Assembly: GCA_002429485.1 (NCBI GenBank)
Contig: DIZX01000002.1
Span: forward strand, 3,082 to 67,081
Direction of reading: 5' to 3'
Source: Patescibacteria group bacterium UBA6017
GTDB lineage: Bacteria > Patescibacteriota > Saccharimonadia > UBA4664
DNA: 64,000 nucleotides
A program made the position numbers and the translations under genes. This document shows positions 1 through 58,831 of this stretch, piece by piece; position 1 is the first letter of the stretch, and the number at the start of each line of letters is the position of its first letter. A model generated the notes under the pieces. The model searched no databases and was not told the DNA's origin. It saw nothing but the letters and a program-made list of their open reading frames with translations.

Positions 1-850
1 GCTCGGCCTGGAGGGTGACGTCACTGGGTGGGTGGAGGACCTGCGGTCGGTCTGCCGGGAGGTGGCACGGGTGCTCAAGCCGAGCGGGGCGTTCTGGTTG
101 AACCTCGGCGACAGCTTCTCCAGGCACACCCGCTACGGCGCACCACCCAAGGCCCTGCTGCTGGCTCCGGAGCGGCTGCTGCTGGCGCTGGCTGCCGACG
201 GGTGGATGGTGCGAAACAAGGTGATCTGGGCCAAGACCAACCCGATGCCGTCCTCGAACCGGGACCGGCTGACGCTGACGTGGGAGGGGCTCTATCTGCT
301 GGTGCGGTCCGGGTCCTACCACTTCGACCTCGACGTCATCCGGGAGCCGCATACCAGCACCGCCCCGAAGATCTCCCTTGCCGCGGTGGAGGTGCCGGAC
401 GGTCGCGAGACCTGGGCGGGCCCGCTAGCGGCCAGCCGGGGCGGACTCGCCAAGGTCAAGGCTTCGGGCCGGGCTGGGCACCCGCTCGGCAAGAACCCCG
501 GCGACGTGTGGCGGATCGCTACGAGCGGCTTCCGGGGAGCGCACTTCGCGACGTTCCCGCCTGAGCTGGTGCGCCGCCCGATCCTGGCGACCTGCCCGCC
601 CCTGGTCTGCAGCGATTGCGGCTTGCCCTGGGGACCGGTCCGGGGACGCCCCACCAGCGCGGTCGGGCCGAGGTGTGACCTGGCGGTGGCACCGCGGCCG
701 GGCGTGGTGCTCGACCCGTTCTTCGGGACTGGCACCGTCGGGATCGTCGCCCGTGACCTCGGTCGCGACTGGCTCGGCATTGAGTTGAAGCCCGAATACG
801 TCCAACTGGCTCGCGAGCGACTCGGGCTCGATCTGGAGGCTGCCGCATGA
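1..850 (+). CDS. Site-specific DNA methyltransferase, N4-C/N6-A family (5' partial)
   Basis: RVLKPSGAFWLNLGDS, IWAKTNPMP, HFATFPPEL, VLDPFFGTGT, GIEL motifs; frame open to window edge. Confidence 0.9.
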   Translation, partial: LGLEGDVTGWVEDLRSVCREVARVLKPSGAFWLNLGDSFSRHTRYGAPPKALLLAPERLLLALAADGWMVRNKVIWAKTNPMPSSNRDRLTLTWEGLYLLVRSGSYHFDLDVIREPHTSTAPKISLAAVEVPDGRETWAGPLAASRGGLAKVKASGRAGHPLGKNPGDVWRIATSGFRGAHFATFPPELVRRPILATCPPLVCSDCGLPWGPVRGRPTSAVGPRCDLAVAPRPGVVLDPFFGTGTVGIVARDLGRDWLGIELKPEYVQLARERLGLDLEAAA

Positions 851-950
851 GCCAGCGCCCTCGGGCCTCAAGTCCTCGTCGGTGGCGTGCAGCCGTCGTC
901 GTCACCCCTCGTCATGGAGTGGCCGGCTGCACCAACACCAAGGAGGACCG

Positions 951-1283
951 ATGTCCGAACCAAGTGGGCGCGGGTACAAGACCCTCGCCGTTCGACTGCC
1001 CGATGAGCTGCACGCACAGCTCGTCCTCATCGCCGGGCTCGGAGGGCTGTCGCTCAACGACGCCATCCGCCAAGGGGTCCAGGAACTCGTCGACCGCAGG
1101 CGCGGCGACGGAGACCTGGCCGCCCAGGCCGCCCAGGCCCTGGAAGAGATGGAACAGGAGTCTGCTATCAAACGGCAGGCCCTGCAGGCCCTGCTCGGAC
1201 CGACCGCCGTCAAGGCGACCCCGTCTGCCGAGCAGCCCACCCCGCCCCGGGGACGCTCCCGGCGCGGGGAGCCCGCGAGCTGA
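951..1283 (+). CDS. Ribbon-helix-helix (CopG/Arc-like) DNA-binding protein
   Basis: AGGAGG 941-946 before ATG 951; KTLAVRLPDELHAQL...SLNDAIRQGV fits the RHH pattern. Confidence 0.7.
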   Translation: MSEPSGRGYKTLAVRLPDELHAQLVLIAGLGGLSLNDAIRQGVQELVDRRRGDGDLAAQAAQALEEMEQESAIKRQALQALLGPTAVKATPSAEQPTPPRGRSRRGEPAS

Positions 1284-1339
1284 TCGCTCGCGGGAGCTCA
1301 AAGCTGTGGGGAGGGCGATTCTTTCGCCCTCCCCACAGC
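1272..1339 (+). terminator. Tandem GC-rich hairpins after the RHH gene
   Basis: CCCGCGAGC/GCTCGCGGG (1272-1294) and perfect 16-bp stem GCTGTGGGGAGGGCGA/TCGCCCTCCCCACAGC (1303-1339); no U-tract. Confidence 0.6.
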
Positions 1340-1487
1340 ACCCCACCAATGCGCGATTTCTTGGCGTAAACGACAAAGAATCGGCGCAAGATGCGGATAT
1401 TCTTTGGAAAAGAAATCGTGGAACGTGGGCAACATTTCCTTGTATAATTGGAATGATCGCGAAATTGATTGGAAATGGTTAATTGAT

Positions 1488-1901
1488 ATGGCTCGGACAA
1501 ACACTAAGACGGTAAATGAGGCTAGCGCCAAGCTCGGGGCATACCTGCAACAGCTCCGATTAGAAAGACGCTTAACGATGCGCGGACTGGCCGCCCGCGC
1601 GAAGGTCGACTTCTCCTACGTCTCGCGCCTCGAACATGGTCTCGTCGGTGCCCCCACCGCGCGCCAACTATGGAAGATTGCGCGGGCACTGGACATCGAG
1701 GTCGCTGATCTCTACTCCGAGGCGGGCTTCGTCGACGCCCACGGACTCCCCGGATTCGGACCCTACCTGCGCACCAAGTACCACCTGCCCGATGAGGCCA
1801 TCTCCCAACTGCAAGCGCACTTTGCACTTATCAACGAGAAGTATCACGCGGCCCGAAATGGCGATGCAGCGATCAGTGCTGAGGAGGCACCCGATGCTTA
1901 G
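1488..1901 (+). CDS. XRE-family HTH repressor (ImmR/cI-like)
   Basis: LQQLRLERRLTMRGLAARAKVDFSYVSRLEHG...LWKIARAL HTH_3 pattern; AT-rich upstream region with TATAAT 1443-1448. Confidence 0.88.
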   Translation: MARTNTKTVNEASAKLGAYLQQLRLERRLTMRGLAARAKVDFSYVSRLEHGLVGAPTARQLWKIARALDIEVADLYSEAGFVDAHGLPGFGPYLRTKYHLPDEAISQLQAHFALINEKYHAARNGDAAISAEEAPDA

Positions 1902-2442
1902 CACGATTACCCGGCTGCGCGACCTTGTCCCGCTACGCCGCCTATCGACACCCGAGGCGCTGCGCGTTGCGGAGGACCAGGCCAACCGGCTCTTGCACCT
2001 GTCCGGAATCACGGAGCCCCCGCTTGCCGAGGACGTCATCGCCGGAATGCCCCACATCCAAGTCGAACGTGTTGTGCCCGCCAGAGCGCTCGCCGCGACA
2101 CAGTGGTCGGACGGGCGCTGGCTGATCATCATCAACGGCGCGCTCAGCCAGGGGAGACAGCGTTGGAGCCTGGCCCACGAGGTCAAGCACATCCTCGACC
2201 ACCCATTCGTGACGATCCTCTACCCCCGGGGCTCCACGGAACGGGCCGAGCAGGCCTGCGACTACTTCGCCGCCTGTCTCCTGATGCCCCGGCGCTGGCT
2301 GCGACGAGCCTGGTCCCAGGGCACCCCCGACGTCCGGACACTCGCCCGCCTGTTCGGAGTGACACCAGCAGCTGTCACGGCCCGGCTACTACAGGTTGGC
2401 CTGATTGACCCAACATCACATCACCTCGTAAGGGAGGCCTGA
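1894..2442 (+). CDS. ImmA/IrrE-family metallopeptidase (anti-repressor)
   Basis: RQRWSLAHEVKH (HExxH) and EQACDYFAACLLMP; GAGGAGG SD; overlaps XRE stop. Confidence 0.9.
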   Translation: MLSTITRLRDLVPLRRLSTPEALRVAEDQANRLLHLSGITEPPLAEDVIAGMPHIQVERVVPARALAATQWSDGRWLIIINGALSQGRQRWSLAHEVKHILDHPFVTILYPRGSTERAEQACDYFAACLLMPRRWLRRAWSQGTPDVRTLARLFGVTPAAVTARLLQVGLIDPTSHHLVREA

Positions 2443-2443
2443 C

Positions 2444-4207
2444 ATGAGCGAACCCGTGTATCTGCAGGAACCGGAGACAGTGCCGACGGCGACGCTCCCC
2501 CGAGCCGAGGTGGCGACCAGGCGCGCGGTGATCTACCTGCGGGTGTCGACGGCCGACCAAGCGCACGCGGACGGAGCGTCCGAGGGATACTCAATCCCCG
2601 CGCAGCGCGAGGCCTGCACGAGCAAGGCCCAGGACTTGGGCGCAGTGGTGGTGGGCGAATTCGCCGACCGTGGAGAGTCAGCCAGGTCTGCCGCCCGACC
2701 AGGGCTGCAGCAGATGTTGCGATTGTTGGCCGAGCACAAGGACGTTGACTTCGTCATCGTGCACAAGGTTGACCGACTGGCCCGCAACCGCGCCGACGAC
2801 GTACAGATCCAGATCGCGATAGAAAAGGCCCGAGCCCGGTTGATCAGCGTGACCGAGAGCGTCGACGACACCCCCTCAGGCAAGCTCGTGCACAACATCA
2901 TGGCCGACCTCGCCGAGTTCTATAGCGCCAACCTGGCCAGCGAGATCCTCAAAGGCTCCACCCAAAAGGCCAGCATGGGCGGTACCCCCTACCGCGCCCC
3001 AATCGGCTACCTGAACGTGCGCTACTTGGTCGAGGGCCGGGAGATCCGGACCATTGAGATCGACCTGGAGCGGGCCCACTTCATCCTGCGGGCCTTCGAG
3101 CTGTACGCGACGGGCGAGTACTCGCTCAAATCCCTGCACCTCCAATTAACGGCTGAGGGGCTGAGTACACGGCCAACACCCAGACAACCGGCGAAGCCGA
3201 TGGCGCTCTCGAAGTTCGCTAACCTGCTGCGCAACCGCTACTACCTGGGGGTGGTCACCTACCGAGGCGTAGAGCACCCCGGCAAGCACCCCGGGATCAT
3301 CGAGCAGGGCCTGTTCGATCGCGTGCAGCGCGTGCTGGAAGAGCGAGAGCAGCACACGATCAAGCAGCGCCGCAACCGCCACTATTTACGGGGGCTGCTG
3401 ACGTGTGCACGATGCAAGAGCCGCATGCTTTACACGACCGGCAAGGGCAAGGGCGGCGGCACTTTCGACTACTACGTCTGCAGCAAGCGCCACAAAGGGG
3501 CCGCTTGCGACCTCACCTACCTGTCAGCCGCCGACATCGAGGACCGGATCGAGCGCGCCTGGCACCTCTGGGTCCACCTGGACCGACTGGACGGCGAGAC
3601 GGTGGGACGCGATCTGGAGGCGATGGTGCTCGGCGACAAGGACCACCCGGAGCGGATCGCGCGCGCTCAGCGGCAGATCGCCCGCCTCGAATCCGAACGC
3701 CTCAAACTCGTGCAGATGGCCTACGCCGACGCCATCCCAATGAGCCTGCTGAAGACCGAACAGGAACGGATCACCATTCAGAGCCAGCAGGCCGAGCAGG
3801 AGATCACGAAAGCGCAGCCCAGCCAGGACATCATGAAGACCTACGAGCAGGCACGCGCCCTCATGAAGCGAGGGGCCGACGCCTACAGGGTCGCCGGACC
3901 CGACGCCCGTCGACTTCTCATCCGAGCCTTCTTAGCCCTGATCACGGTCGACACCGACGAGGAACACGCCACGCTGGCCAGCCCATGGCTGGAGATCCAA
4001 TCGGCCGCTGCCTCTGTACGTCAGGTGCGACCCCTCCCCCAACGCCCTGTGCGCCATGGTGGGCGCGTCGACCAGATCAGGAGGGCCTCAATGTCGAACC
4101 CCGGCCCTCTTTCTGAGGACCGGGGTTCGACTATGAATCCTTTGGTGGAGCTGAAGGGATTCGAACCCTTCACCTCTGCAATGCGAATGCAGCGCTCTAC
4201 CAAATGA
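2444..4207 (+). CDS. Large serine recombinase (integrase)
   Basis: YLRVST catalytic Ser, VHKVDRLARN, recombinase domain, LRGLLTCARC...YYVC Zn ribbon, coiled coil; last codons overlap the tRNA antisense. Confidence 0.95.
   Translation: MSEPVYLQEPETVPTATLPRAEVATRRAVIYLRVSTADQAHADGASEGYSIPAQREACTSKAQDLGAVVVGEFADRGESARSAARPGLQQMLRLLAEHKDVDFVIVHKVDRLARNRADDVQIQIAIEKARARLISVTESVDDTPSGKLVHNIMADLAEFYSANLASEILKGSTQKASMGGTPYRAPIGYLNVRYLVEGREIRTIEIDLERAHFILRAFELYATGEYSLKSLHLQLTAEGLSTRPTPRQPAKPMALSKFANLLRNRYYLGVVTYRGVEHPGKHPGIIEQGLFDRVQRVLEEREQHTIKQRRNRHYLRGLLTCARCKSRMLYTTGKGKGGGTFDYYVCSKRHKGAACDLTYLSAADIEDRIERAWHLWVHLDRLDGETVGRDLEAMVLGDKDHPERIARAQRQIARLESERLKLVQMAYADAIPMSLLKTEQERITIQSQQAEQEITKAQPSQDIMKTYEQARALMKRGADAYRVAGPDARRLLIRAFLALITVDTDEEHATLASPWLEIQSAAASVRQVRPLPQRPVRHGGRVDQIRRASMSNPGPLSEDRGSTMNPLVELKGFEPFTSAMRMQRSTK
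4093..4131. repeat. Inverted repeat next to the att site
   Basis: GTCGAACCCCGG (4093-4104) / CCGGGGTTCGAC (4120-4131), 11 nt from the tRNA CCA end; possible tRNA terminator or att arm. Confidence 0.6.
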
Positions 4208-47082: not shown

Positions 47083-47994
47083 TCAGGCGATCTCAGCCAA
47101 CGCCTTGGCGATGATCGTGGTCTCGTCCTCGAGGCTCGCCGGCACCTTCTGACGGTCAGGGTCGATGTCGCCGATGAGGGTGATCTTGGCGCCGACCTTT
47201 TCGGCGGTGATCCCCGGTATGGTGACACCGTCTGTCTCGGCGACGAAGATCCTGGAGACGTGGCCGCCGGCGACTGAGTAGATGTGGCCGCTGACCAAGC
47301 ACTCTTCGTGTGCGAGGTAGGCGACCACGGGGCTGACGGTCTCGGGCGAGACCTTGCTTGCCAGGTCCTCTCCGAGGATGTCCTCGGTCATCCGGGTCCG
47401 CGCGATCGGTGCGATCGCGTTGACCTTGATGTTGTGACTGGCGCCCTCGAGAGCGAGGACTCGGGTGAGTCCGGCGAGGCCAGCCTTGGCTGCGCCGTAG
47501 TTGGCCTGACCGAAGTTGCCGAACAGGCCGGAAGCCGAGCTCGTGCTGACGATGCGGCCGTAGCCCTGCTCGCGCATGAGCCTGTAGGCAGGCCCGGTGA
47601 CGTTGAAGGCACCCTTGAGGTGGACGTCGATGACCGCGGTGATCATGGTGTCATCCATCTTGTGGAAAGCCTTGTCGCGCAGAATGCCGGCGTTGTTGAC
47701 GAGGATGTCGACTCGGCCGAAGGCATCGATCGCGGCCTGCACGATGGCCGCGCCGCCTTCTGCGATGGCCACGGAGTCGTGGTTGGCTACGGCGATGCCA
47801 CCGAACGCGGTGATCTCGGCGACCACGAGGTCGGCGGCAGACAGCGATGAGCCACTGCCGTCGACTGCCCCGCCGAGGTCGTTGACCAGAACTTGGGCGC
47901 CGCGACGAGCGAGCTCGAGAGCGTGCGAGCGACCGAGGCCCCCGCCAGCACCAGTGATGATGGCAACACGGCCGTCAAAGCGAATATCTGACAT
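47083..47994 (-). CDS. SDR oxidoreductase (MFE-2/hydroxyacyl-CoA dehydrogenase-like)
   Basis: TGAGGGLG, VNDLGG, NNAGILRD, GNFGQANYGAAK; GAAGGG SD. Confidence 0.92.
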   Translation of the reverse strand: MSDIRFDGRVAIITGAGGGLGRSHALELARRGAQVLVNDLGGAVDGSGSSLSAADLVVAEITAFGGIAVANHDSVAIAEGGAAIVQAAIDAFGRVDILVNNAGILRDKAFHKMDDTMITAVIDVHLKGAFNVTGPAYRLMREQGYGRIVSTSSASGLFGNFGQANYGAAKAGLAGLTRVLALEGASHNIKVNAIAPIARTRMTEDILGEDLASKVSPETVSPVVAYLAHEECLVSGHIYSVAGGHVSRIFVAETDGVTIPGITAEKVGAKITLIGDIDPDRQKVPASLEDETTIIAKALAEIA

Positions 47995-48124
47995 GTCGTA
48001 CCCTTCGGTTCGATTGAAACACAACAGAACAGAGTACAAGAGTAATCTGCCACCACAGTGTGAGATGGAATCGTAGGTTTGTCAAGCTCGGTAATCTGTT
48101 GCGCAGAAGGTATAATACTATTTG

Positions 48125-48958
48125 ATGACCGAACTTATAAGCCAAACCGAATTGATTTGCCCGACTTGCCGGTTGGCACTCGCCGCTGCGGACCGAGCAT
48201 TCGCCTGTGAGTCGGGCCATAGCTATGACCTGGCAAGGGAAGGTTATATAAATCTGATCACCGGCAAAGCGCCGAGCGCGCTGCAGGGCGATAATGCCGA
48301 AATGGTGCGGGCGAGGCGGGCGTTCCTGGGGCGGGGACACTACCGGCCGCTGGCCGAGGCAGTAGCGGAAGCAGTGACGGGTATGTCTATGCAGGTGCTA
48401 GCGGATTTTGGCTGCGGTGAAGGATATTACCTTGATCAGCTAATGAATACGCCGGGACTTAAAGGCGTACGGGTGTATGGCACGGATATCTCAAAGCCGG
48501 CCATAGCGGCTGCCGCCAAGGCCTACCCCCTGACCCAGTGGGTAGTGGCCGACACCAACCGATTAATCCCGTTGGCGGACGGGTCGGTGGATGCGGCGAT
48601 TGATGTGTTTGCCCCGAGGAACGCGGCAGAATTTGGACGGGTTATTCGACCCGGCGGGCGCCTGGTGGTGGCAATTCCCGGCCCTGCACACTTGGCAGAT
48701 ATAAGTGAACGGTTTGGATTAATCGGCATTCAAAACGACAAGCCGGCAAAAATTAGTTCACAACTGAATGAATTTGATTTGCTCGACACTAAGCGGGTAG
48801 AAGATGAGATTCTCCTTGACACGTCAAGCTTACGGGATTTGCTCGAAATGACTCCCAATGCCCGCCATTTGAGCGAGCAGGCTCGGGCCGAGGTTGAACG
48901 TCTGAGCGAAACCAGGACACATATCGAATTTGACGTGCTGAGCTTTGGCCGACGCTAA
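48125..48958 (+). CDS. 23S rRNA m1G methyltransferase RlmA-like
   Basis: CPTC...CESGHSYDLAREGYINL Zn finger, GDNAEMVRARRAFL, DFGCGEGYY. Confidence 0.85.
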   Translation: MTELISQTELICPTCRLALAAADRAFACESGHSYDLAREGYINLITGKAPSALQGDNAEMVRARRAFLGRGHYRPLAEAVAEAVTGMSMQVLADFGCGEGYYLDQLMNTPGLKGVRVYGTDISKPAIAAAAKAYPLTQWVVADTNRLIPLADGSVDAAIDVFAPRNAAEFGRVIRPGGRLVVAIPGPAHLADISERFGLIGIQNDKPAKISSQLNEFDLLDTKRVEDEILLDTSSLRDLLEMTPNARHLSEQARAEVERLSETRTHIEFDVLSFGRR

Positions 48959-48980: not shown

Positions 48981-50063
48981 ATGAGTTTTCCAAAACTGAG
49001 CATATCCAGAGCTCAGCTTACGAGGTGGGTGCCATTTGGTGGCGTTGCAACGGCATTATTCGTTAGCGGATTGGCCGTGGTACTGCTATGGCCGCAAGCC
49101 AGCGTGAGCTTATCGCTAGACGGCACATTGCCGCCAAAATTGCAGTCTGAATACGGCCGCACGGTGAAACTGCTTCACGATTTTCAGGCACGCCAAAACG
49201 ACCTGCATTCGGAAGTGGTATCCCAGGGTGAGATAAATAGACAACTGTCCCTGATTTCGCTTGATGCTCAGAGCGGTCACTTCGTGGCGGCCCGTAATGA
49301 TATTCGGTCACTAAGGCAGGCGGTGGCCAACTGGAACCTGGAGCTCAGCAGCGGACCGAAGGCAGCGGCAACGTTGGCCAGCGCCCCAATATCAGCGGCG
49401 GCGCTAGGCGGCTTACACCTGCCGATTTTGCTATACCACTATCCCCCGCCCGATTTTGAGGCTCAGCTCGTGCACCTGGAGCAGGCCGGCTACACGGTGA
49501 TCGACCTCGATCAGGCATTGGCGGGACTACGCGGCGAAGCCTTACCGGCCAAACCGGTAGTTATAACTTTCGACGATGGGTTTTCGGCCCAGATGTCGGC
49601 CTTTGAGGCTTTGAAGCGCCACAATATGAAAGCTACGTTCTACATCATCTATGGCGGTGAGGCGAGCAAGTGGTGTATTGGAGCGGGCCGCCGCTACGGC
49701 GATCCGCTGCAGCCGCCAAACGGCTGCGGTGATGGCTATCTCAACTGGGATCAGGTGAAAATGCTCGACCGCAGCGGTCTAATCACCATAGCCGGCCACA
49801 CCATTAATCACCGTAATCTGGTCTCACTGTCCGAGACCGACCAGCGCTTCGAGATCGAAGTGGGTAAAGAAATGCTCGAAGGCGAGCTGGGCCACAGCGT
49901 GCGGCACTTTGCTTACCCCTACGGCCAATTCAATGCTACGACCATCAAAATCGTCCAAGAGGCGGGCTACCTCACGGCAACGACGACAATTCCCGGCGTT
50001 GACCAACCGGCGGGATCAGCTTTCACGCTGCGGCGTGTGCGCAACACGTTTCAGCTCCCCTAG
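48981..50063 (+). CDS. Membrane-anchored polysaccharide deacetylase (CE4/NodB)
   Basis: TM + coiled coil; PILLYH, ITFDDG, GHTINH, FAYPYG. Confidence 0.9.
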   Translation: MSFPKLSISRAQLTRWVPFGGVATALFVSGLAVVLLWPQASVSLSLDGTLPPKLQSEYGRTVKLLHDFQARQNDLHSEVVSQGEINRQLSLISLDAQSGHFVAARNDIRSLRQAVANWNLELSSGPKAAATLASAPISAAALGGLHLPILLYHYPPPDFEAQLVHLEQAGYTVIDLDQALAGLRGEALPAKPVVITFDDGFSAQMSAFEALKRHNMKATFYIIYGGEASKWCIGAGRRYGDPLQPPNGCGDGYLNWDQVKMLDRSGLITIAGHTINHRNLVSLSETDQRFEIEVGKEMLEGELGHSVRHFAYPYGQFNATTIKIVQEAGYLTATTTIPGVDQPAGSAFTLRRVRNTFQLP

Positions 50064-50560
50064 GTAGTAGGCAGGCCTAGCTTTTCACTAATAATGTTGA
50101 GAACTTCGCGGGGAGTTAGCTCGGCCTTCACGAGATACTCGGCGCCATAGGAATGAGCCGTATTGCGGTCGGACAATTCGGATGAATTAGTGAGCACAAT
50201 CACGGGCATCTGGGCGAAATCAAAACCGTCATTCTGGAGCGCAGAGAGCACTTCGAGGCCGGAGAGCTCGGGCATGTTAATATCGAGCACCGCCAGATTG
50301 GGGTGTTCGGACTTTACGGCTTCAAAGGCGTCGCGGCCGTTGTTTTTCAGGACAACGCGGAAGCCGGCACTCTCCAGCTTGATCTGGTACATACGTGAAA
50401 TAAACGGATCGTCTTCGGCAATCAGAATAGTTTTGATGTCGGGATCAACAGCAGCGACTGGGGCTGCCGGTGCTGCGGCTGGGGCTGCTGGAGTTGCGGC
50501 TGCGGCCGGGGCTGCAGATTCGGCAACCGGGGCGGGGGCATTATTTGTGGGACTTGGCAT
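50060..50560 (-). CDS. Single-domain response regulator with Ala/Pro-rich N-tail
   Basis: ILIAEDD, LDINMPELSG, LTN, YLVK; overlaps the kinase stop. Confidence 0.9.
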   Translation of the reverse strand: MPSPTNNAPAPVAESAAPAAAATPAAPAAAPAAPVAAVDPDIKTILIAEDDPFISRMYQIKLESAGFRVVLKNNGRDAFEAVKSEHPNLAVLDINMPELSGLEVLSALQNDGFDFAQMPVIVLTNSSELSDRNTAHSYGAEYLVKAELTPREVLNIISEKLGLPTT

Positions 50561-52724
50561 GGGCGACCTCGCGTATTGGTGTTACTGGCTTAAACGGTAG
50601 CTCGAAACCAAAGGTCGAACCTTTACCCTCGACGCTATTGAATATGATTGTACCACCCTGATCCTCTACTACCCGTTTTGCCAGATACAGACCAAGCCCG
50701 GTACCGTCGGGACGAACAATCTGAGCGTTGTCAGCGCGGAAAAATTTGGTAAAGAGTTTTTTCTTGGCTTTATCGGGCACACCAATGCCGCTGTCGCGAA
50801 CCTCGAGCCGAACCCTATCGCCGGACTGCTCAAGGACCACCCTCACTTCGCCCGTTTGAGTGTAATAAATGGCGTTATCGATAAAGTTCATTACCACCTG
50901 GCGGGTTTTGTTGTCGTCAATTTCGGCTGGCGGCAAAATTTCGGTTGGGCGGTCAAAAATAAGCTGAATATTCTTGGCAGAGGCATGGGTGGCTAGCTGA
51001 CGAACTTCGTCGGCAACCAAGCCTACCATGTCGGTCGGCTTGGTCTGGATCAGGAAACGCCCCGCCGACAGGCGCGACACATTAAGAAGGTCGGAAATAA
51101 GGTTGACCATCCGCTCCGACGAGCCATAGGCAAATTCGGCGAACTCTTTTTGGGTGGGAGTAAGCTGGCCGGAGTCACCCTCGAGCATCATCGACAGATA
51201 CCCCTTGATGGTAGTGAGAGGTGTGCGCAACTGGTGTGAGGCCATCGAGATAAACTCATCCTTGGCTTTATCGAGCTCCTTAAGGTGGTGGTTGGCCACG
51301 CGCAAGCGATTGGTGGCGTGATCGATGCGCGCCTGCAGAGTGAGGTTAAACTCTTCGATCTGGGCATACGCTTTGGCGTTCAAGATGGCGACGGCGAGCT
51401 GCTTGCCGATGATCTCGAGCAAGTCTAAATCTTGATTCGAATATATATCGCCGGAAAGCTTGTCTCCGAGCAGCAAATACCCCACGAACTCCTCGCGCGT
51501 CTTGAGGGTGAGTGAGACCCGAATACCGTGCTCTTCCATCAGTTGCTTGCGCTGGCCGCCTTCGAGCTCATCGGCCACAATCATCGGTGACTTAAGGGTG
51601 CTGAGCTCCGGAGCTACCATTAGCCGCTTAGGCAGCTCACCGTAGTGTTCCACCCGATACACGCGCTCGTTGTTGAAGATAACGAGTTGGCCAAACTCGA
51701 TATTAAGGCTTTCGCAAAGGGCAGTAATGGTGCGCTTAAGAATTCGGTCCAAGTCTCGTTCGGATACAAGAATTTTGGAGAAGTTGTTTAATACTACTTG
51801 GGAATCATAGAGATGCCGATAAAAGATATGGTCAGTAATGTTCTGGAAAAACCGCTTAAGCGGGTGGAACGTGAACGCCAGGACCATAGCAAGCATCGTG
51901 TAGATAGCAACTTGGTTGAACGAAGTTGAGGTTCCCGGCAGAAGAACAGAGACGATCCAAAATCCCGTGGCTGCATAAATACCCTCGAAAGTCAGTAGCA
52001 GGAGTAGGTAGGTAATGGTACGCGCAACAAAGAATCGGATATCGAATAGCCGCTGAGTGACAACCGCATAGGCCACGCTGCCAGTAAAGAACAGAGTGTA
52101 GGCGGCACCATACGGCAGCAGCCAATTGATCTGGAAAAAAGCCACCAGCACAAAATTCGTGATGAATATCAATCCAAAGGTAATGCTCAGCCCGAATATG
52201 ACGTACTTAAACTGTTGGCGTTCAAGATTCTTGGATTTACGATATTGCCTTACCAGGGTGCTCCCCGCAAGTCCAAGCAGCAGTACGGTTTGGGCCAGAA
52301 ACACTACTATCCCCGGGCCGGGTATGGCGCTTACGCTTCCTGTAGCACTCATCTCGAGGTGAGTGAAGACGTATGGCGTTAGAGTCAGAGCCATCACGAA
52401 TGCCGTTAACATAATAGCGGGTAATATAAACCTGTCCTTGGGTGGGTGAGCGCGGGGAAACGACCTAAACGTCAGGAAAGCGGCTAAATTCAAGAAGGCG
52501 GCCGTAAACAGTACAATCCGAACCAATACCAGTTGGTTCTCGAGCGAGGAGTGTACCGACAGATAGTTGGCGCCGCTCCAAGCACAAAAGGCTAGGGCAA
52601 GAATTAAAAAGCGGCTGTTGGTAGCGCTTTTCGGGTTCTTCAAGTACACCAACAATCCAAGAAGGACATTGGCAAGCAGAGCAAAGACTAGGATAATGAT
52701 CTCAAGCATAGTCTCTATTAGCAT
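50541..52724 (-). CDS. Multi-TM (HisKA_7TM-like) GAF sensor histidine kinase
   Basis: About 9 TM N-terminus, GAF-like region, ASHQLRTPL H-box, NFIDNA, DSGIG, FFRA, GTGLGL. Confidence 0.93.
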   Translation of the reverse strand: MLIETMLEIIILVFALLANVLLGLLVYLKNPKSATNSRFLILALAFCAWSGANYLSVHSSLENQLVLVRIVLFTAAFLNLAAFLTFRSFPRAHPPKDRFILPAIMLTAFVMALTLTPYVFTHLEMSATGSVSAIPGPGIVVFLAQTVLLLGLAGSTLVRQYRKSKNLERQQFKYVIFGLSITFGLIFITNFVLVAFFQINWLLPYGAAYTLFFTGSVAYAVVTQRLFDIRFFVARTITYLLLLLTFEGIYAATGFWIVSVLLPGTSTSFNQVAIYTMLAMVLAFTFHPLKRFFQNITDHIFYRHLYDSQVVLNNFSKILVSERDLDRILKRTITALCESLNIEFGQLVIFNNERVYRVEHYGELPKRLMVAPELSTLKSPMIVADELEGGQRKQLMEEHGIRVSLTLKTREEFVGYLLLGDKLSGDIYSNQDLDLLEIIGKQLAVAILNAKAYAQIEEFNLTLQARIDHATNRLRVANHHLKELDKAKDEFISMASHQLRTPLTTIKGYLSMMLEGDSGQLTPTQKEFAEFAYGSSERMVNLISDLLNVSRLSAGRFLIQTKPTDMVGLVADEVRQLATHASAKNIQLIFDRPTEILPPAEIDDNKTRQVVMNFIDNAIYYTQTGEVRVVLEQSGDRVRLEVRDSGIGVPDKAKKKLFTKFFRADNAQIVRPDGTGLGLYLAKRVVEDQGGTIIFNSVEGKGSTFGFELPFKPVTPIREVAHAKSHK

Positions 52725-52752
52725 AACTACTTTGAGAGGAAAACACCAACTC

Positions 52753-53763
52753 GTGACAAACTATTCGGCCTGGGACGTGTCTAGCCAAGACTTTCCAATA
52801 AAAGGAGCTATCGAAAAGCAGATCGAGTTTTTGTGCCGCTACGCCATATTGGCGCCATCAGTACACAACGTTCAACCGTGGAGATTCGAGATCGACAACA
52901 GCACCTTGCGAGTATTTCTGGCAAAAGAACGCACGCTCGAAGCGGGAGACCCTACCGGCCGGGAGGGTTGGCTAAGTATCGGAGCGGCTATAGAGAATTT
53001 GCTCGTGGCGGCAAAATATTTTGGCCTAAGCGCCGCAGAGATACGGCGCAATGCCCATAGTGTGGAGTATGCATTCACTCCCGGCCAGGCCGATCTACAT
53101 CTCGAACCACTTATGCAGGCGATGGTTAACCGCGCCAGTAACCGCGAGCCATACTCCTCCACCCCGGTAGCGCGTGAGACACTCGATGAGATAGCAGGAA
53201 ATCAGGATGAGGGCGTTCAGGTCGTAGCTTCGAGCGACCGTAAATTAATCGAGCTGATTGCTAACCTCACTGGCCGAGCCATCGCAATTGCGCTAGGCAA
53301 TCCCTCATTTCGTGACGAACTGAGCTCCCTCGTACGCTCAAGTTGGACAAAAAAATCTACCGGCATGCCGGGATTCGGATTGGCAGTGTCGGGGGCCCGT
53401 TCGCTTATAGAGAATAAACTCATTCGGAGCGGTGCAACCGCTGATGCTCAGGGGAAGAAAGAACACGATGTGTTGATCCACAGCGGGGCTGTGGTGCTGG
53501 TATTTGCAGATGGCGACACACAGCCATACTGGATCAATGCCGGACGGGCCTATCAGCGCGCCGCGCTGGTGGCAACGGCTCATAGCCTAGATACCGCAAC
53601 TATGGCTGCCACCGTTGAAGCCGCAGACTTTCATCTTGATGTTGAGCGATATTGCGATACTGGCGGACGGCTGCTAGCCGTGATGCGCATCGGACACTCC
53701 GGCAAGCCCGCGCGGCATTCGCCCCGATTGGCTGCGCACGAAGTAGTTACATTTTCTTCATAG
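52753..53763 (+). CDS. Nitroreductase-fold (Acg/Rv3131-like) FMN protein
   Basis: AILAPSVHNVQPWRF, GAAIENL, RASNR.PY, AGRAYQR, MRIG...SPR. Confidence 0.85.
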   Translation: MTNYSAWDVSSQDFPIKGAIEKQIEFLCRYAILAPSVHNVQPWRFEIDNSTLRVFLAKERTLEAGDPTGREGWLSIGAAIENLLVAAKYFGLSAAEIRRNAHSVEYAFTPGQADLHLEPLMQAMVNRASNREPYSSTPVARETLDEIAGNQDEGVQVVASSDRKLIELIANLTGRAIAIALGNPSFRDELSSLVRSSWTKKSTGMPGFGLAVSGARSLIENKLIRSGATADAQGKKEHDVLIHSGAVVLVFADGDTQPYWINAGRAYQRAALVATAHSLDTATMAATVEAADFHLDVERYCDTGGRLLAVMRIGHSGKPARHSPRLAAHEVVTFSS

Positions 53764-54997
53764 CTCGGTCGAGAATCCGAGAGTGCTGGCGGTGACGGAG
53801 CTTGTGTTTGATACCCACGCGTCCTTCGATAAGTGTGCTCTCGAGCGAAACGATAGTACGCCCAGATTTGAGCGGCTCGGACAAAGCAAGTTGCCGGACC
53901 GCAAATGCCACTACAGCCCCAGCAATCATGGCGGTGCCTCCGAGTTGAGGTTGAGTGGGCAGGGTGGATCCAACTTTTAAAAGTGATTTCTGCATATCAA
54001 GCGGAACATTTTTGGTGCCAATGATAGCGGTGGCGTATTTGAGCCACTCGCGCTGAGACATATCTTTGCGGCTGAGGATTTCTTCTATGTTGCCGACCAG
54101 CCCGTGAAACAGCGGTAGATTTGGGTTGAGATCGTAACGCTCAACGTCGAGCATAACGTCATCCCCGAGATCGGTGGCCATAATAACGGGTATACGGCGC
54201 TCGCGGGCGGCCACCCGAAGTCGGATCTTAACCTCTAGGTCGTCAATTTCATCTATCAGGACGTCGGTCGGCCAGGGATGGTCGAGAAAATCGGGCAGGG
54301 TATCTGGCTTGACGGGGGCATGGAGCTGCTCGAGCTGAATATACGGGTTCATTTCGTAGAGTTGGCGGGCAACCACGCGGGCTTTTTCTTCACCTACACT
54401 CGCCACTCCGGTACGAATGCGGTTAAGATTTGAGCCGCTGATGACGGCGCCGTCGGCAATTTTCATCCGACTCGAGCCACCCTGCAAGATCAAAGCCACG
54501 GCCGCACTGCTGCCGACGCTCATCCCGAAGCAAGCCGCGTTGATAGCGGCGTACTGAGTTTGTTGTGCCGCGGTGATGAGGTCTTTGTTTCGCACAGTCC
54601 TCAACGCCGTAAATAGCTGCTCTTCGAGAATGTGAACAAGTTGACCATTCCATGGGTAATATACCCAACTGCCCTTGCGCCAGGCCGGCACCCCGGCATA
54701 GTGCTGGTCGAGCATTTCAGCGATAGAGTGCTGCTTAATGTCTGGGCTGGCGCGGTAGAGATGGGCGTTTTCGCTGATGAACAGCTCGGCAAGCTGTTCA
54801 TCATAATTATCGATTACCTTGGTGATGCTGGCACCTTCGAGAATCTTCTCAAGACGCAGCTCGCCAGCGGCATCGTCGAGGCTTACTACTACCGGCGCAT
54901 CGGCCGAGTCGTGCAAAGTCGCCCGGGAAGCGGCCGCCTGAAGGTATTCCGGCCAGGTGCCAGAATAGTCGGTCTTAGAGAGGTTTAAGTGTCCCAT
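53747..54997 (-). CDS. ThiF/E1-like adenylyltransferase (Rv1355c/MoeY-type)
   Basis: WVYYPW, RTVRNKDLIT, GMSVGS, ADGAVISGSNLNR, IDEIDD, DVERYD, PQLG. Confidence 0.88.
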   Translation of the reverse strand: MGHLNLSKTDYSGTWPEYLQAAASRATLHDSADAPVVVSLDDAAGELRLEKILEGASITKVIDNYDEQLAELFISENAHLYRASPDIKQHSIAEMLDQHYAGVPAWRKGSWVYYPWNGQLVHILEEQLFTALRTVRNKDLITAAQQTQYAAINAACFGMSVGSSAAVALILQGGSSRMKIADGAVISGSNLNRIRTGVASVGEEKARVVARQLYEMNPYIQLEQLHAPVKPDTLPDFLDHPWPTDVLIDEIDDLEVKIRLRVAARERRIPVIMATDLGDDVMLDVERYDLNPNLPLFHGLVGNIEEILSRKDMSQREWLKYATAIIGTKNVPLDMQKSLLKVGSTLPTQPQLGGTAMIAGAVVAFAVRQLALSEPLKSGRTIVSLESTLIEGRVGIKHKLRHRQHSRILDRAMKKM

Positions 54998-56469
54998 TAG
55001 CGCTTAACCCAACGGTGCTTTACGCCCTTAGCAAAATGTTCCTGATCGCCGAATTCGATCAGGTTTACCACCGGTTCGGCCTTATCCTTAACTGCGCTGT
55101 AAAGCTTACGAAATTCGCCGTTTAATTTGGTTAGTTTTGTGATGAGGGTACGGCTGGCGATGGCCTTGTACTCAGCCTCTGGGCGAATACCCCTGGCTAG
55201 TTCTATGTTGATCTCAATATACTGATCCATATCGGACTTATTGTTAGTGGCCATGGTGAATTTACCCGTAACCCAGCCGCGCATTTTGGGGTCCACCAGA
55301 GCAGCTTTAATGTTTTCGGGGTAGATATTGACGGCGTAAATAGTGGCGGTGAAGTCTTTGCGCCCGTTCAGGTAGACAAACGGCAAATGCCACGGCTTAG
55401 TGTCTATACCGTGTTGGGCTATCCCCTGTGCAAAAGCGGGTCCGGCCATGGCTACGGCTTCGTCATAAGGGAGAATACCCCCGAGATCATGGATATTGTA
55501 GCGCAACAAGGGAATACCCGCGTAGGCGGAAAACACCATCTCGCCGCCAACTGACTCGAAATAACGGCTCATCGGGTCGTACTGCATTAGAGACGGCAGG
55601 ACTTCGGTTCCGAAATATTTTTGACTGACGGCTGGACGTCGATTGAGTATACGCCGAAGTAATATCGAAACCGGGGTTTCGTGTCCAAGCATAGCGGCAT
55701 CGGCACTGCCATATATATTTATGCCGCCGCGGTAAGGATCGCGAGAGCCGACTTGACGCAGCATGTAGTCCCGCCACTCTTCACTGAAGGCTTCACCTGC
55801 CCACATAAATTTCACGTTAAGGCGGTTCCACCGAATGCCCTGGTTGCGGCCCTCATCCAGAATATCTTTGGTGAACGGCGGATATCCGGCAATAATCACC
55901 TGCTCATACTGGCTGCCGAGGTGCTTAATAGCTTTAACGGCTTCTTCTTTTTCCATTCCGGGAGTGACGAGGTTTATCTTGAGACCATGTTCGATGGCAC
56001 CAAGTGTACTCGAGGTGGTGTACGACCCGGCGATCCATGTACCCATCGAGAAGCAGACAACAACGAGCGTGGATTTGTGGTCGGCATTGAATATTTCGCG
56101 GTAAATGCGGGCGTGGAGCACAGCGCCTTCGACGTCTTGTCCCAAACTACGAGGCCAGAAAAAGGGTGCCCCCGTTGAACCGGAGCTAACTGAAATAATT
56201 CGGGAATGATCCAGCGTGCCGTCCCAGCAGAGCTCTGCGAGCGGGTATTTGGTGAGGTAATTTTTTTTGTCGACAAGCGGAAGCTGCTTGAAATCAGCAA
56301 TAGTTTTCACAGACTTCGGGTTGACGCCGGCCTGCTTCAAGAAATCTTTGTAGGCGGGGACTCTCACGGCGGCTTCACTAAAAAGTTTCAGCACCGATCG
56401 ATCGGCGGGAAGTGGATCAGAAGCGACAACATTTCCCGTACGGAATAGGGTGTTTGTGATTATCTTCAT
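54997..56469 (-). CDS. Phenylacetate-CoA ligase (PaaK)-family adenylating enzyme
   Basis: VPAYKDFL, SSGSTG P-loop, AGYP, AGE, YGSAD, PLLRYNIHD, GR, NIYP. Confidence 0.88.
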   Translation of the reverse strand: MKIITNTLFRTGNVVASDPLPADRSVLKLFSEAAVRVPAYKDFLKQAGVNPKSVKTIADFKQLPLVDKKNYLTKYPLAELCWDGTLDHSRIISVSSGSTGAPFFWPRSLGQDVEGAVLHARIYREIFNADHKSTLVVVCFSMGTWIAGSYTTSSTLGAIEHGLKINLVTPGMEKEEAVKAIKHLGSQYEQVIIAGYPPFTKDILDEGRNQGIRWNRLNVKFMWAGEAFSEEWRDYMLRQVGSRDPYRGGINIYGSADAAMLGHETPVSILLRRILNRRPAVSQKYFGTEVLPSLMQYDPMSRYFESVGGEMVFSAYAGIPLLRYNIHDLGGILPYDEAVAMAGPAFAQGIAQHGIDTKPWHLPFVYLNGRKDFTATIYAVNIYPENIKAALVDPKMRGWVTGKFTMATNNKSDMDQYIEINIELARGIRPEAEYKAIASRTLITKLTKLNGEFRKLYSAVKDKAEPVVNLIEFGDQEHFAKGVKHRWVKR

Positions 56470-56500
56470 TGTTCCTGTAAGCTACTATATAAGATATAGC

Positions 56501-57607
56501 ATGAAATCAATCATTGCACATAGAGCGCAGTCGTTTACGAGCTCAGAAATAATGGGCTTTTTTGCCAAAGCCAAGGGACTGGCAAACCCGATCGATCTAA
56601 GCATCGGCATCCCATACGGCGAGATGACGTCGGCTGGACGCGACGCAGCTGTGAAGGCTCTCCATGAGGGCAAGACTACCTATTCGCCAGCCGGAGGAAT
56701 GGTAGATTTGCGCGCGGTAGTGGCGAAAAAGCTACAGGAAAGAAACAATATTCCCGCGTTGACTGATACTACGATTATTACGGCCGGTGTAAGTGCCGGC
56801 CTATTTTTGGCAATGGCGGCTATTCTCGATCCTGGCGATGAAATCATAATCCCCGACCCATTTTTCTTGGCTTACCGCGAACTGGCGGTGTTGCTGGATG
56901 TGAAGCCGGTATTTCTTGATACCTACCCGTCATTTAATCTCGATGTTAGCCGGCTAGAGAAATTGATCTCGCCGCGCACTAAGGCCGTATTGATTAACTC
57001 GCCCAACAATCCGGCGGGCACGGTATACGAGCGCGCAACGCTAGAGGCGTTAGCTGAAGTCTGCAAGAAAAATGATCTGGTTGTGATTTCTGATGAGGTG
57101 TATGAGGATTTCGTGTTTTCGGGCGAGCACACGAGCATAGGATCGATATATCAGCCGACGATAACACTCAACGGGTTCTCGAAAAATCATGCGATGACCG
57201 GAATGCGGATCGGCTACGCTCACAGCACGCCGGAAATCATTAAAGCCATGACCGATCTCGAGCAGTTCGTGTTTTTCTCAAATTCTTCGGTGGCCGAACA
57301 CGCAGCAATGGCCGTACTCAGTGTGTCGACCGAGGCTACGATGCAGCATTATGCCAAGAATCGTGAGTACATTTTCGAGAACCTTGATCCAGCATATGAA
57401 CGCTCGGAAAGTGCAGGGTCATTCTTCTGCTTCATAAAACACCCGACACTCAACGGGCGAGAAGTGGCCGAGAAAGCCCTTGCCCAGCAACTAGTCGTGA
57501 TACCCGGTGATTTGTTTTCGCTTAGAACAAGCCATTTTCGCATTTCCTATGCAACGGATTTAATAACATTGACGGCCGGCATAAATATTTTGAACGCACT
57601 CATATAG
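56501..57607 (+). CDS. PLP-dependent aminotransferase class I/II
   Basis: LSIGIP, INSPNNPAG, ISDEVY, GFSKNHAMTGMRIGY, FRISYA. Confidence 0.92.
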   Translation: MKSIIAHRAQSFTSSEIMGFFAKAKGLANPIDLSIGIPYGEMTSAGRDAAVKALHEGKTTYSPAGGMVDLRAVVAKKLQERNNIPALTDTTIITAGVSAGLFLAMAAILDPGDEIIIPDPFFLAYRELAVLLDVKPVFLDTYPSFNLDVSRLEKLISPRTKAVLINSPNNPAGTVYERATLEALAEVCKKNDLVVISDEVYEDFVFSGEHTSIGSIYQPTITLNGFSKNHAMTGMRIGYAHSTPEIIKAMTDLEQFVFFSNSSVAEHAAMAVLSVSTEATMQHYAKNREYIFENLDPAYERSESAGSFFCFIKHPTLNGREVAEKALAQQLVVIPGDLFSLRTSHFRISYATDLITLTAGINILNALI

Positions 57608-57640
57608 TCATAATCGCTAGTAACTTGTATAATATTAAGC

Positions 57641-58051
57641 ATGAGCACTATCAAGACTAAAGTCGCAATCATCGAAGATGATATTGCGATTGTACAAATG
57701 TACCGGACCAAGTTTGAGACCGAAGGCTATGATGTATCGACGGCGCCGGATGGCGTGAGTGGCCTGGAATTGATCGAATCATTTGAGCCAGACATCGTGT
57801 TACTGGATCTGATGATGCCGAATATGAACGGCCTCGACATGCTATCTCGGTTGCGAAGCCAACCCAACGGGCGTGATGCCAAAGTGGTTGTGCTTACTAA
57901 CATGGGCGACACCGAGACTGCCACTAAGGTCTTCAAAATGGCCGCCGACGACTACATCGTGAAGGCCGAAATGACACCGAAGCAGGTAGCCGAGCGCGTG
58001 AAGACGTTGTTGGATAAAACACCGACTCCTCCGAGCGGCCCGACCTCCTAG
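57641..58051 (+). CDS. Single-domain response regulator
   Basis: IIEDD, LLDLMMPNMNG, LTN, DYIVK; ATG 7 nt behind TATAAT. Confidence 0.92.
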   Translation: MSTIKTKVAIIEDDIAIVQMYRTKFETEGYDVSTAPDGVSGLELIESFEPDIVLLDLMMPNMNGLDMLSRLRSQPNGRDAKVVVLTNMGDTETATKVFKMAADDYIVKAEMTPKQVAERVKTLLDKTPTPPSGPTS

Positions 58052-58060
58052 CCGAATTGC

Positions 58061-58831
58061 TTAAGCGGCGGATTGGGCGGCAATAAGCAGATTGTCGAAC
58101 AGTGAGACGACGGTCATAGGACCGACGCCGCCGGGGTTGGGCGTGATGATGAGATCGTCCTGACGGTAAAGCGCCGGATCGAGCTCGCTTTTCGGGGAGC
58201 CCGTGTCGATGAGCACGGTGTCCGGTCTGACCATGTCGGGTTTGATGAGATGCGGCTGACCGGTGCAGGTGAAGATAATATCGGCCTGGAGGGTCTCAGC
58301 GGCCAGATTTTTGGTGTGAATGTCGCAGCGCACGACGTCGAGGCCGGAGGCTTCGAGGCGGTCGGCTAGCGGCTTGCCTACGAGCCTCCCCTGCCCTATC
58401 ACAACGATCCGGCCCTTGAGGTCGACATTGTGGGCGGCCAGCAGCCACAAGGCGGCTTTGGGGGTAGCAGCCTCAAAGGAGGTGCCGGGAGCGAGGCCAT
58501 CGACGTCTTTCTCGAGGGCAACCGCCGCGAGGGCCGGACTGACCATTTTTGGGTCGCTCAATGGGAGCTGAACAATGATGCCGGTGACGCCGGAATCGAG
58601 ATTGAGGTGATGGATGCGCTCCAGAATAGAATCCGGGGTCTCAGCAAAGACGCTGACTTTGACGCCAATAGATTCCCCGTAGCGTGATTTGACCCGCAGA
58701 TAGACATCCGTCCCGGCATCTTCGCCCATACGAACGATCGCCAGGTGCGGGGGCATGGCCATACCCGCTACCAGAGTAGTGTGGCGTTGAGCAATAAATT
58801 CGGCGATATCGCGCCCGGCGAGTAATTTCAT
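58061..58831 (-). CDS. folD: FolD methylenetetrahydrofolate dehydrogenase/cyclohydrolase
   Basis: GIIVQLP, KDVDG, GRLVGKP, TPNPGGVGPMTV. Confidence 0.92.
   Translation of the reverse strand: MKLLAGRDIAEFIAQRHTTLVAGMAMPPHLAIVRMGEDAGTDVYLRVKSRYGESIGVKVSVFAETPDSILERIHHLNLDSGVTGIIVQLPLSDPKMVSPALAAVALEKDVDGLAPGTSFEAATPKAALWLLAAHNVDLKGRIVVIGQGRLVGKPLADRLEASGLDVVRCDIHTKNLAAETLQADIIFTCTGQPHLIKPDMVRPDTVLIDTGSPKSELDPALYRQDDLIITPNPGGVGPMTVVSLFDNLLIAAQSAA

Follow-up and report, generated by a model that had tools for sequence, protein, structure and literature searches.

Architecture of the Locus

The locus described here lies in a 64,000-nucleotide window of the genome of Patescibacteria group bacterium UBA6017, a member of the Saccharimonadia (GenBank assembly GCA_002429485.1, contig DIZX01000002.1, positions 3,082 to 67,081 of the forward strand), and combines a histidine kinase and two response regulators with four enzymes. 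Comparison with related genomes shows that the kinase core and the regulators form a conserved chassis, and that a block of about 5.8 kb (51850..57640, boundaries approximate), which comprises the sensor-encoding 5' end of the kinase gene and the genes for a nitroreductase, a ThiF-like enzyme, a PaaK-like ligase and an aminotransferase, is exchanged as a unit. The kinase gene (50541-52724, minus strand, with a second ATG at 52709) is thereby divided into a conserved 3' part (50541..51850), encoding a GAF-like region and the HisKA and HATPase domains with their H, N and G boxes, and an exchanged 5' part (51850..52724), encoding a HisKA_7TM sensor (PF16927) and two more helices. The response regulators are both receiver-only proteins of the conserved chassis: RR1 (50060..50560, minus strand; PF00072, E 1e-20) has a Pro/Ala-rich N-terminal tail, retains the acidic pair and the phospho-Asp, Thr and Lys motifs and is 68-94% identical across the loci of the family, while RR2 (57641..58051, plus strand; PF00072) forms the right border of the swapped block. 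The enzymes between them are an Acg-type flavin mononucleotide (FMN) oxidoreductase of the nitroreductase fold (52753..53763, plus strand, GTG start; NF047509), a ThiF-like adenylating enzyme of the Rv1355c/TrzS type (53747..54997, minus strand), a PaaK-like adenylate-forming ligase recognized by fold and motifs (54997..56469, minus strand) and a class I pyridoxal phosphate (PLP) aminotransferase (56501..57607, plus strand, ATG start; PF00155).

An earlier sequence-only reading of the window had described four tightly packed enzymes between a kinase and receivers, and all seven open reading frames (ORFs) and both of the gaps that it named are confirmed, namely 28 bp between kinase and nitroreductase (52725-52752 with the kinase start at 52724, or 43 bp if the second ATG is used) and 31 bp between ligase and aminotransferase (56470-56500). 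The ligase and ThiF genes overlap by 1 bp (stop/start) and the convergent nitroreductase and ThiF genes by 17 bp, the catalytic motifs are intact in all seven products, and the clustering of these genes is far above chance expectation. The two regulators are indeed single-domain proteins, but this is not distinctive, as six of the seven receivers in the genome are single-domain, in frames of 128-173 aa. No peptide-processing enzyme family was found among the cassette ORFs of at least 80 aa, and gaps of 28-33 bp are too short for a peptide precursor. An invertible element was considered and rejected, as only short, chance-level repeats occur at the cassette and none at its boundaries, and a promoter and terminator scan was uninformative, with 6 and 11 sites where shuffled sequence gives 7.6 and 8.8. 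Two flanking markers probably lie outside the system: a polysaccharide deacetylase on the left (48981..50063, plus strand; PF01522), found next to the chassis in most family loci, and FolD on the right (58061..58831, minus strand; PF02882/PF00763), found near RR2 in many loci of the family and the class.

Joint Exchange of Sensor and Enzymes

The borders of the exchanged block were placed by blastn against seven family loci that carry other cassettes. In all seven, DNA homology stops at window positions 51,809-51,880, inside the kinase gene and between its membrane and GAF regions, and in six it picks up again at 57,634-57,653, the start of RR2, the seventh contig ending earlier. The alignment with genome G004, which has the same cassette, is continuous at 77% (sensor 76%, core 93%). 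With the congener G006, which has another cassette, identity is 29% in the sensor, 89% in the GAF region, 94% in both the core and RR2, and 91% in FolD, and among family members with other cassettes the sensors are 21-40% identical. The best sensor matches besides G004 (42-46%) belong for the most part to unplaced genomes or to those of other families, and the ThiF proteins of these genomes are 47-54% identical. As a control, three other kinases were compared by their sensors, which are 66, 84, and 87% identical in G006 and 57-87% over the congeners tested. These comparisons show that relatives exchange enzymes and sensor jointly, by recombination between the kinase core and RR2.

Phylogenies of the two parts of the kinase, both of which omit five short or truncated proteins, differ in the same sense. 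In the sensor tree, a single clade of 25 sequences (support 92/85, not starred) takes in all 23 of the PaaK type, with the sensor of this genome placed beside those of G149, G075, G230, and CAZPPF (99/97), while the core tree recovers genus-wise groups in three cases (G000/G004/G006, G020/G024, and G019/G023). Approximately unbiased (AU) tests reject forcing the groups of either tree on the other (p-AU 8e-69, 4e-4, 5e-5, and 2e-3), the groups having been taken from the tree of the other partition. Among 20 orthologous loci, the nearest sensor belongs to the same cassette type in 16 and the nearest core in one, with cassette types labelled from gene content after the sensor tree had been seen, and a partial Mantel test gives r 0.27 (7 of 5000 permutations).

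What Fills the Slot in Relatives

The N-terminal region of the kinase is matched in 24 of the 26 family genomes and in all 19 of those of good quality, and the order deacetylase, RR1, kinase, cassette, RR2, FolD is largely kept. The cassettes of these 24 genomes are of the PaaK type in seven and of a FeeM/GNAT type in 14, with three at contig edges; those of the second type, in which FeeM Pfam scores are mostly under cut-off, usually hold a PlsC-like acyltransferase and, in some cases, a methyltransferase or a short ThiF. It had been supposed from the window alone that a PaaK-like ligase stands in for the usual N-acyltransferase, and since a FeeM/GNAT acyltransferase occupies the same slot in 14 of 24 relatives, this replacement is seen directly. 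Four loci (L021-L023, L156) carry ThiF together with a FeeM-like acyltransferase in the slot, which is the known oxazolone gene set. In several family genomes another 7TM kinase occurs with a cassette of its own (paralog kinases of L055-L061, and L018), and in G001 a paralog sensor lies inside the PaaK-type clade, with PaaK and ThiF paired on another contig, of 3 kb.

Across the class, the 7TM (seven-transmembrane) sensor profile is matched in 211 of 301 genomes. Twenty non-PaaK loci, picked by hand among the stronger matches on long contigs, have as the protein upstream a FeeM/GNAT-fold protein (13, and one weak), an LPG_synthase_C-type transferase (2) or an unannotated protein (4), and several carry arginine, ornithine or S-adenosylmethionine (AdoMet) decarboxylases. 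In six loci (L155, L157, L161, L162, L165, L169), a GNAT-like or unknown protein and one of these decarboxylases precede the 7TM kinase, and these are possibly N-acyl-polyamine cassettes. Two or three unannotated families recur in the slot (L158, L163, L164, L165, L167, L170) and are candidates for new signal synthases.

The co-occurrence of the ligase with its neighbors was counted with profiles built from the analysis's own loci, within 8 kb of the ligase in the class set, where the ligase itself was matched in 25 of the 301 genomes. Among the 21 strong matches besides this genome, ThiF and the 7TM kinase stand beside the ligase in every one, with a nitroreductase in 15, an aminotransferase in 14, an amino-acid dehydrogenase in two and FeeM in none. 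In the phylum set, the ligase was matched in 48 of 401 genomes, and 40 of the 43 additional matches were examined (all but G666, G492, and G642): 37 have the 7TM kinase, 29 a ThiF and two more a short ThiF, and 21 a nitroreductase, with a dehydrogenase in ten, an aminotransferase in five, an ammonia lyase in four and FeeM in none. The neighborhood check proposed with the sequence-only reading therefore links the enzymes to the kinase (21/21 class loci, 37/40 phylum loci), and of its four-enzyme set the association of ligase, ThiF and kinase stands, while the nitroreductase (15/21) and the aminotransferase (14/21 in the class, 5/40 in the phylum) prove optional or interchangeable. Alternative supply enzymes at the locus are a ScyB-like dehydrogenase, prephenate dehydrogenase, aromatic ammonia lyase and an FkbO/Hyg5 chorismatase; because all of these would give an aromatic acid, an aroyl rather than a fatty acyl group is proposed.

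Several further arrangements were seen in these surveys. A conserved NAD-epimerase-like protein of about 360 aa adjoins the ligase in the place of the aminotransferase in four to five loci (L099:4408-5529, L105:9112-10191, L115:9031-10155, L117:9079-10176). Five weak matches (L080-L084) form a second PaaK-like subfamily, 27-30% identical, of which four lie beside an Acg-type nitroreductase, with no ThiF or 7TM kinase within the DNA examined. At L102:3608-11261, a PaaK-like ligase and a 7TM kinase occur near a YcaO cyclodehydratase and a nitroreductase. The culturable Nonomuraea gerenzanensis (L151:8428-10371) has a 40%-identical ligase adjoining a HisKA_3/LuxR pair, with no ThiF, oxidase or 7TM neighbor within 9 kb. 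Records titled Bacteroidota (L028-L042; one is titled Vulcanococcus, with a Bacteroidia-like gene order) contain an Rv1355c-type ThiF, either as a fusion or on its own, that in most cases has an unannotated partner of 231 aa and adjoins a kinase of about 710 aa (7TMR-DISM in the one scanned), and so present a parallel link of Rv1355c-type ThiF chemistry to a membrane kinase.

The Sensor

The kinase matches HisKA_7TM (PF16927) with 39.3 bits against a cut-off of 28.6, joined to HisKA and HATPase, while its GAF match stays below threshold (20.5 bits against 22.4). In an AlphaFold model of residues 1-300 (predicted local distance difference test, pLDDT, 92.7), nine long helices are seen, first a set of seven, in which a beta-hairpin follows the fourth, and then two more; a hydropathy scan finds seven segments. 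The earlier description of a kinase with about nine transmembrane segments and a GAF domain thus fits the nine model helices, with seven segments by hydropathy, but its GAF domain falls under the cut-off. A wide structural search with the sensor model gave Z scores of 12.8-15.6, all 50 matches listed being G protein-coupled receptors (GPCRs) or designed GPCR-like folds, although helical bundles can reach about 14 and a common fold shows no function. Foldseek returned nothing at E <= 0.001, its best rows again being GPCRs. The model fits a GPCR-like seven-helix bundle with an intramembrane pocket, for which a ligand is only predicted.

Enzymes of the Cassette

The ThiF-like protein scores 293 bits to the N-terminal half (positions 8-341) of the Rv1355c family model (NF005901) and at most 51 bits to ThiF, MoeB, TcdA and other models, which bears out its earlier assignment to the OxzB/Rv1355c kind; it is 34% identical over 357 aa to a fused Rv1355c-family protein and has the nucleotide-binding loop and a DEID motif. 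D249 of this motif aligns with the acidic motif of a fused family member, TrzS itself lying outside the alignment. In TrzS, which is Rv1355c, the catalytic Asp is D217 and the FMN-site residues are R540 and Q651 (PMC12856293). From its sequence, the protein is a predicted ATP-dependent oxazolone cyclase of the TrzS/Rv1355c type. The nitroreductase (NF047509, 201.2 bits against a cut-off of 199) matches the C-terminal half of NF005901 (E 6e-26) and, structurally, Acg (2ymv), and shares 22% identity with the oxidase half in a fused protein of the Rv1355c family; this Acg-type flavoenzyme is a predicted, optional oxazolone desaturase. Both halves of the di-domain enzyme are hence present as separate genes, as had been proposed, but such a split is not new, since TyzB and TyzC are already known as a split ThiF/oxidase pair (PMC12856293).

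The ligase has no Pfam match and reaches TIGR02155 with E 2e-14 and 53 bits against a cut-off of 646, so that it lies outside the PaaK family proper. It has the motifs SSGSTG, YG.AD, RY...D, and GRKD and a nearly invariant C-terminal K484, and its model (pLDDT 91.3) shows a PaaK-type adenylate-forming fold, which is common to CoA (coenzyme A)-dependent and CoA-independent PaaK-like members. PaaK1/2 are its best structural matches, followed by BT_0428, AjiA1, NatL2, hydroxyisobutyryl-CoA ligase (HCL) and ClxA. The enzyme is predicted to activate an aromatic acid and to form an amide, replacing the N-acyltransferase.

The aminotransferase has the PLP Lys motif, and among solved structures it comes closest to aspartate and aromatic aminotransferases. 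At the position that aligns with Thermus residue 101 it has Ser, and 14 of the 15 aligned rows have Ser or Thr; the wild-type aspartate aminotransferases of this subgroup presumably have a Lys there that binds dicarboxylates, so that a Ser would suggest a neutral or aromatic substrate. The predicted role is the interconversion of an aromatic amino acid and its 2-oxo acid.

Genome Setting

The genome comprises 1.07 Mb in 20 contigs and is 95.9% complete, the window lying on contig C7. The closest named relatives of the window ThiF are Candidatus Saccharibacteria, window DNA was matched in soil metagenomes of one study, with no RNA data set among the matches listed, and the organism is treated here as a soil member of the Saccharimonadia, within the candidate phyla radiation (CPR). 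Each of the four cassette enzymes is single-copy, save for one distant aminotransferase paralog, and eight kinases were counted. The AT-rich character earlier ascribed to the locus is not distinctive: the GC content of the cassette is 51.8% against 54.6% for the genome, 11% of genome windows of the same size are equally low, and the kinase gene has a similar value (51.6%) in its conserved 3' half. CoaE, acyl carrier protein (ACP) and PlsC were not found in the 95.9%-complete genome, nor was CoaBC over its cut-off, and a local profile for FeeM-type proteins had no match in the whole genome. A prephenate dehydrogenase elsewhere in the genome adjoins Mur ligase and FemAB genes and is present with both cassette types, so it was not linked to the locus.

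Elsewhere in the window, positions 1-4000 have a GC content of about 66%, far over the genome mean, and a short-chain dehydrogenase gene (47083-48039, minus strand) with 64% is possibly foreign. A gene at 48122-48958 (plus strand) encodes an RlmA/ChrB/MyrA-like 23S rRNA m1G745/748 methyltransferase, under all NCBIfam cut-offs, and such an RlmA-like gene also adjoins the chassis in G004 and G005.

Relation to Known Systems

The predicted chemistry resembles that of the oxazolone pathways TrzA/TrzS (Rv1356c/Rv1355c), TyzA/B/C, and OxzA/B, which likewise pair a TrzS-type ThiF with an Acg-like flavin oxidase (PMC12856293; bioRxiv 2020.06.11.147165). TrzS is a ThiF-oxidase fusion that cyclizes and desaturates the N-acyl-tryptophan made by TrzA; TyzB and TyzC, as here, are separate genes for cyclase and oxidase, and trzAS also adjoins signalling genes, as its authors remark (PMC12856293). 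Oxazolones are sensitive to acid and to methanol (PMC12856293). Unlike those pathways, the locus has no N-acyltransferase but, at that position, a PaaK-like ligase and an aminotransferase; its oxidase is optional, and the kinase that accompanies it is a 7TM histidine kinase with a sensor that is exchanged along with the enzymes. The chemistry is thus oxazolone-pathway-like, but for want of the acyltransferase the locus is not a member of that group. The ligase shares its fold (Foldseek E 1e-15 to 1e-19) with NatL2/BomJ, AjiA1, and ClxA, which adenylate aromatic acids and then form an ester or amide, as is proposed here; aryl adenylates are converted directly by NatL2 into an ester and by ClxA, probably, into an amide (PMC7204872, PMC9400959). 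In contrast, its identity to these proteins is 14-16%, true CoA ligases score equal or better, and the heterocycle would be closed by ThiF rather than by an amidohydrolase.

In its mode of evolution, the locus is analogous to Staphylococcus agr and to Bacillus ComQXPA with its polymorphic comQXP, in which a hypervariable block spans the synthase genes and the 5' membrane region of the kinase gene; in agr it comprises the 3' part of agrB, agrD and the 5' part of agrC, flanked by conserved kinase and regulator sequence (PMC3673130, PMC4408185). It evolves like these systems, yet is no member of that kind: no peptide precursor or processing enzyme is recognized, the variants are non-homologous enzyme sets (PaaK/ThiF versus FeeM/PlsC/methyltransferase) rather than alleles, and the receivers have no DNA-binding domain.

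Complete CPR quorum-sensing systems were proposed by Bernard et al. (2020) from 51 CqsA-kinase and 18 LuxI-kinase adjacencies (PMC7567580). In two Saccharibacteria rows of their Table S4, kinases are paired with a PF00765 protein; these may represent FeeM-type versions of the present chassis, while a term search of that table found no ThiF, phenylacetate or 7TM entry, and sensor-cassette swapping is not described in the accessible part of the article. Literature searches on oxazolone ThiF/nitroreductase enzymes, on PaaK in Patescibacteria and on CPR quorum sensing returned no description of such a system, although the supplements to the TrzS network could include CPR members, and neither did those on HisKA_7TM, on N-acyl amino acid synthases with kinases and on GPCR-like or 7TM kinases, with most subscription journals outside their scope.

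Proposed Function and Alternatives

The locus is probably best explained as a fixed kinase-core/receiver chassis with a swappable 5.8-kb enzyme/sensor block that is likely a matched pair of signal synthase and receptor, with an N-aroyl amino-acid oxazolone as the predicted signal. In the proposed scheme, the aminotransferase would, depending on its direction, supply an aromatic 2-oxo acid or amino acid; the PaaK-like ligase would adenylate an aromatic acid and join it to an amino acid, probably without CoA, like NatL2 and ClxA; ThiF, by homology to TrzS and OxzB, would adenylate the free carboxylate and close the oxazolone ring; and the Acg-type flavoenzyme, where present, would desaturate the product. 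This product would bind the GPCR-like 7TM domain and shift phosphotransfer to the receiver-only proteins, and the joint exchange of enzymes and sensor would create specificity groups comparable to agr types or ComQXP pherotypes. The make-and-sense circuit put forward in the sequence-only reading, of which the interpretation as a whole holds in part, thereby gains the exchange as an additional argument, its central idea being well supported by comparative genomics, while product and binding are only predicted.

Several observations weigh against a matched synthase/receptor pair or its proposed chemistry. The groups used in the AU tests and the timing of the cassette labels, given above, are among them. 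Over 51 class and phylum loci, the correlation of sensor with ThiF given the core is weak (r 0.08; 85 of 2000 permutations), as is that of sensor with PaaK (r 0.06; 257 of 2000), and core with PaaK given the sensor is stronger than the latter (r 0.24; 4 of 2000), with identities at this depth near saturation. The PaaK proteins of G003/G016 and G005/G020 are 59-75% identical, yet their sensors only 29-32%. No ThiF accompanies the ligase in nine of the 40 phylum loci (some at contig edges), and no 7TM kinase in three. Missing CoA synthesis was rejected as proof of a CoA-free ligase, because it does not discriminate: no family genome (0 of 26), not even one of the FeeM type, has CoaE over its cut-off. 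Finally, producers exposed to oxazolones showed no obvious phenotype (de Rond et al.), and the sensor physically adjoins the cassette, so that linkage alone can yield co-inheritance.

The last point underlies the best-surviving alternative, which we consider unlikely: the cassette would make a stress or defence metabolite, the kinase would sense something else, and the sensor would hitchhike because recombination needs the kinase core and RR2 as flanks. The weak co-variation at the deep level and the oxazolones of Proteobacteria, which are antibiotic-induced and without obvious phenotype, agree with it; it leaves unexplained why, among family members with other cassettes, this sensor alone is just 21-40% identical when those of three other kinases retain 57-87% over congeners, and why unrelated amide-forming enzyme sets recur in one slot. 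Lower still is the probability that we give to interspecies signalling, in which the kinase would read N-acyl amino acids or oxazolones made by a host and the enzymes would convert, mimic or neutralize them. Mycolic-acid actinobacteria make tryptazolones, and TrzS homologs are abundant in Gordonia, Rhodococcus, and Nocardia (PMC12856293); Gordonia is on record as host to a parasite from the Patescibacteria, some cassettes contain an alpha/beta hydrolase or M19 peptidase, and as no CoA or ACP synthesis was detected, substrates must be imported. However, the core enzymes spend ATP on building bonds and are packaged with supply enzymes, which fits synthesis. It is improbable that the chemistry is another one, with the ligase an ordinary aryl-CoA ligase or acting alone and ThiF acting on protein, tRNA or another substrate, so that no oxazolone would be made and the locus may still signal: the ligase is structurally closest to the true CoA ligases PaaK1/2, the nitroreductase is just 22% identical to the TrzS-type oxidase half and absent from 6 of 21 class loci, and PaaK with a kinase but without ThiF exists, often with a methyltransferase, but the bit scores of ThiF single out the Rv1355c model, and ThiF shares the same slot with a FeeM-like acyltransferase in four loci.

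Implications

The biological role of oxazolones is a major unresolved question according to the authors of the TrzS study, who, in its accessible part, propose signalling and name no receptor (PMC12856293). If the matched-pair reading is correct, this locus offers a candidate oxazolone receptor, and its natural swaps provide matched and mismatched sensor/synthase pairs. A wider generalization, which we advance tentatively and would not yet favor, is a class-wide plug-in signalling locus in Saccharimonadia, in which the conserved kinase core and receivers would take up exchangeable modules, each pairing a GPCR-fold sensor with a matching, in many cases unrelated, small-molecule pathway (aroyl-oxazolones, N-acyl amino acids and esters, acyl-polyamines), amounting to small-molecule pherotypes in parasites without most biosynthesis, and in this window to CoA-independent synthesis of a new class of oxazolones alongside the first receptor for an oxazolone. 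Given the presence of the sensor in 211 of the 301 class genomes, the locus, if it does signal, would be a main communication channel of the Saccharimonadia, and the slot may serve as a guide to undescribed small-molecule pathways. The evidence suggests that Saccharimonadia of this group likely make and read lineage-specific chemical signals, the one predicted here being an aromatic oxazolone.

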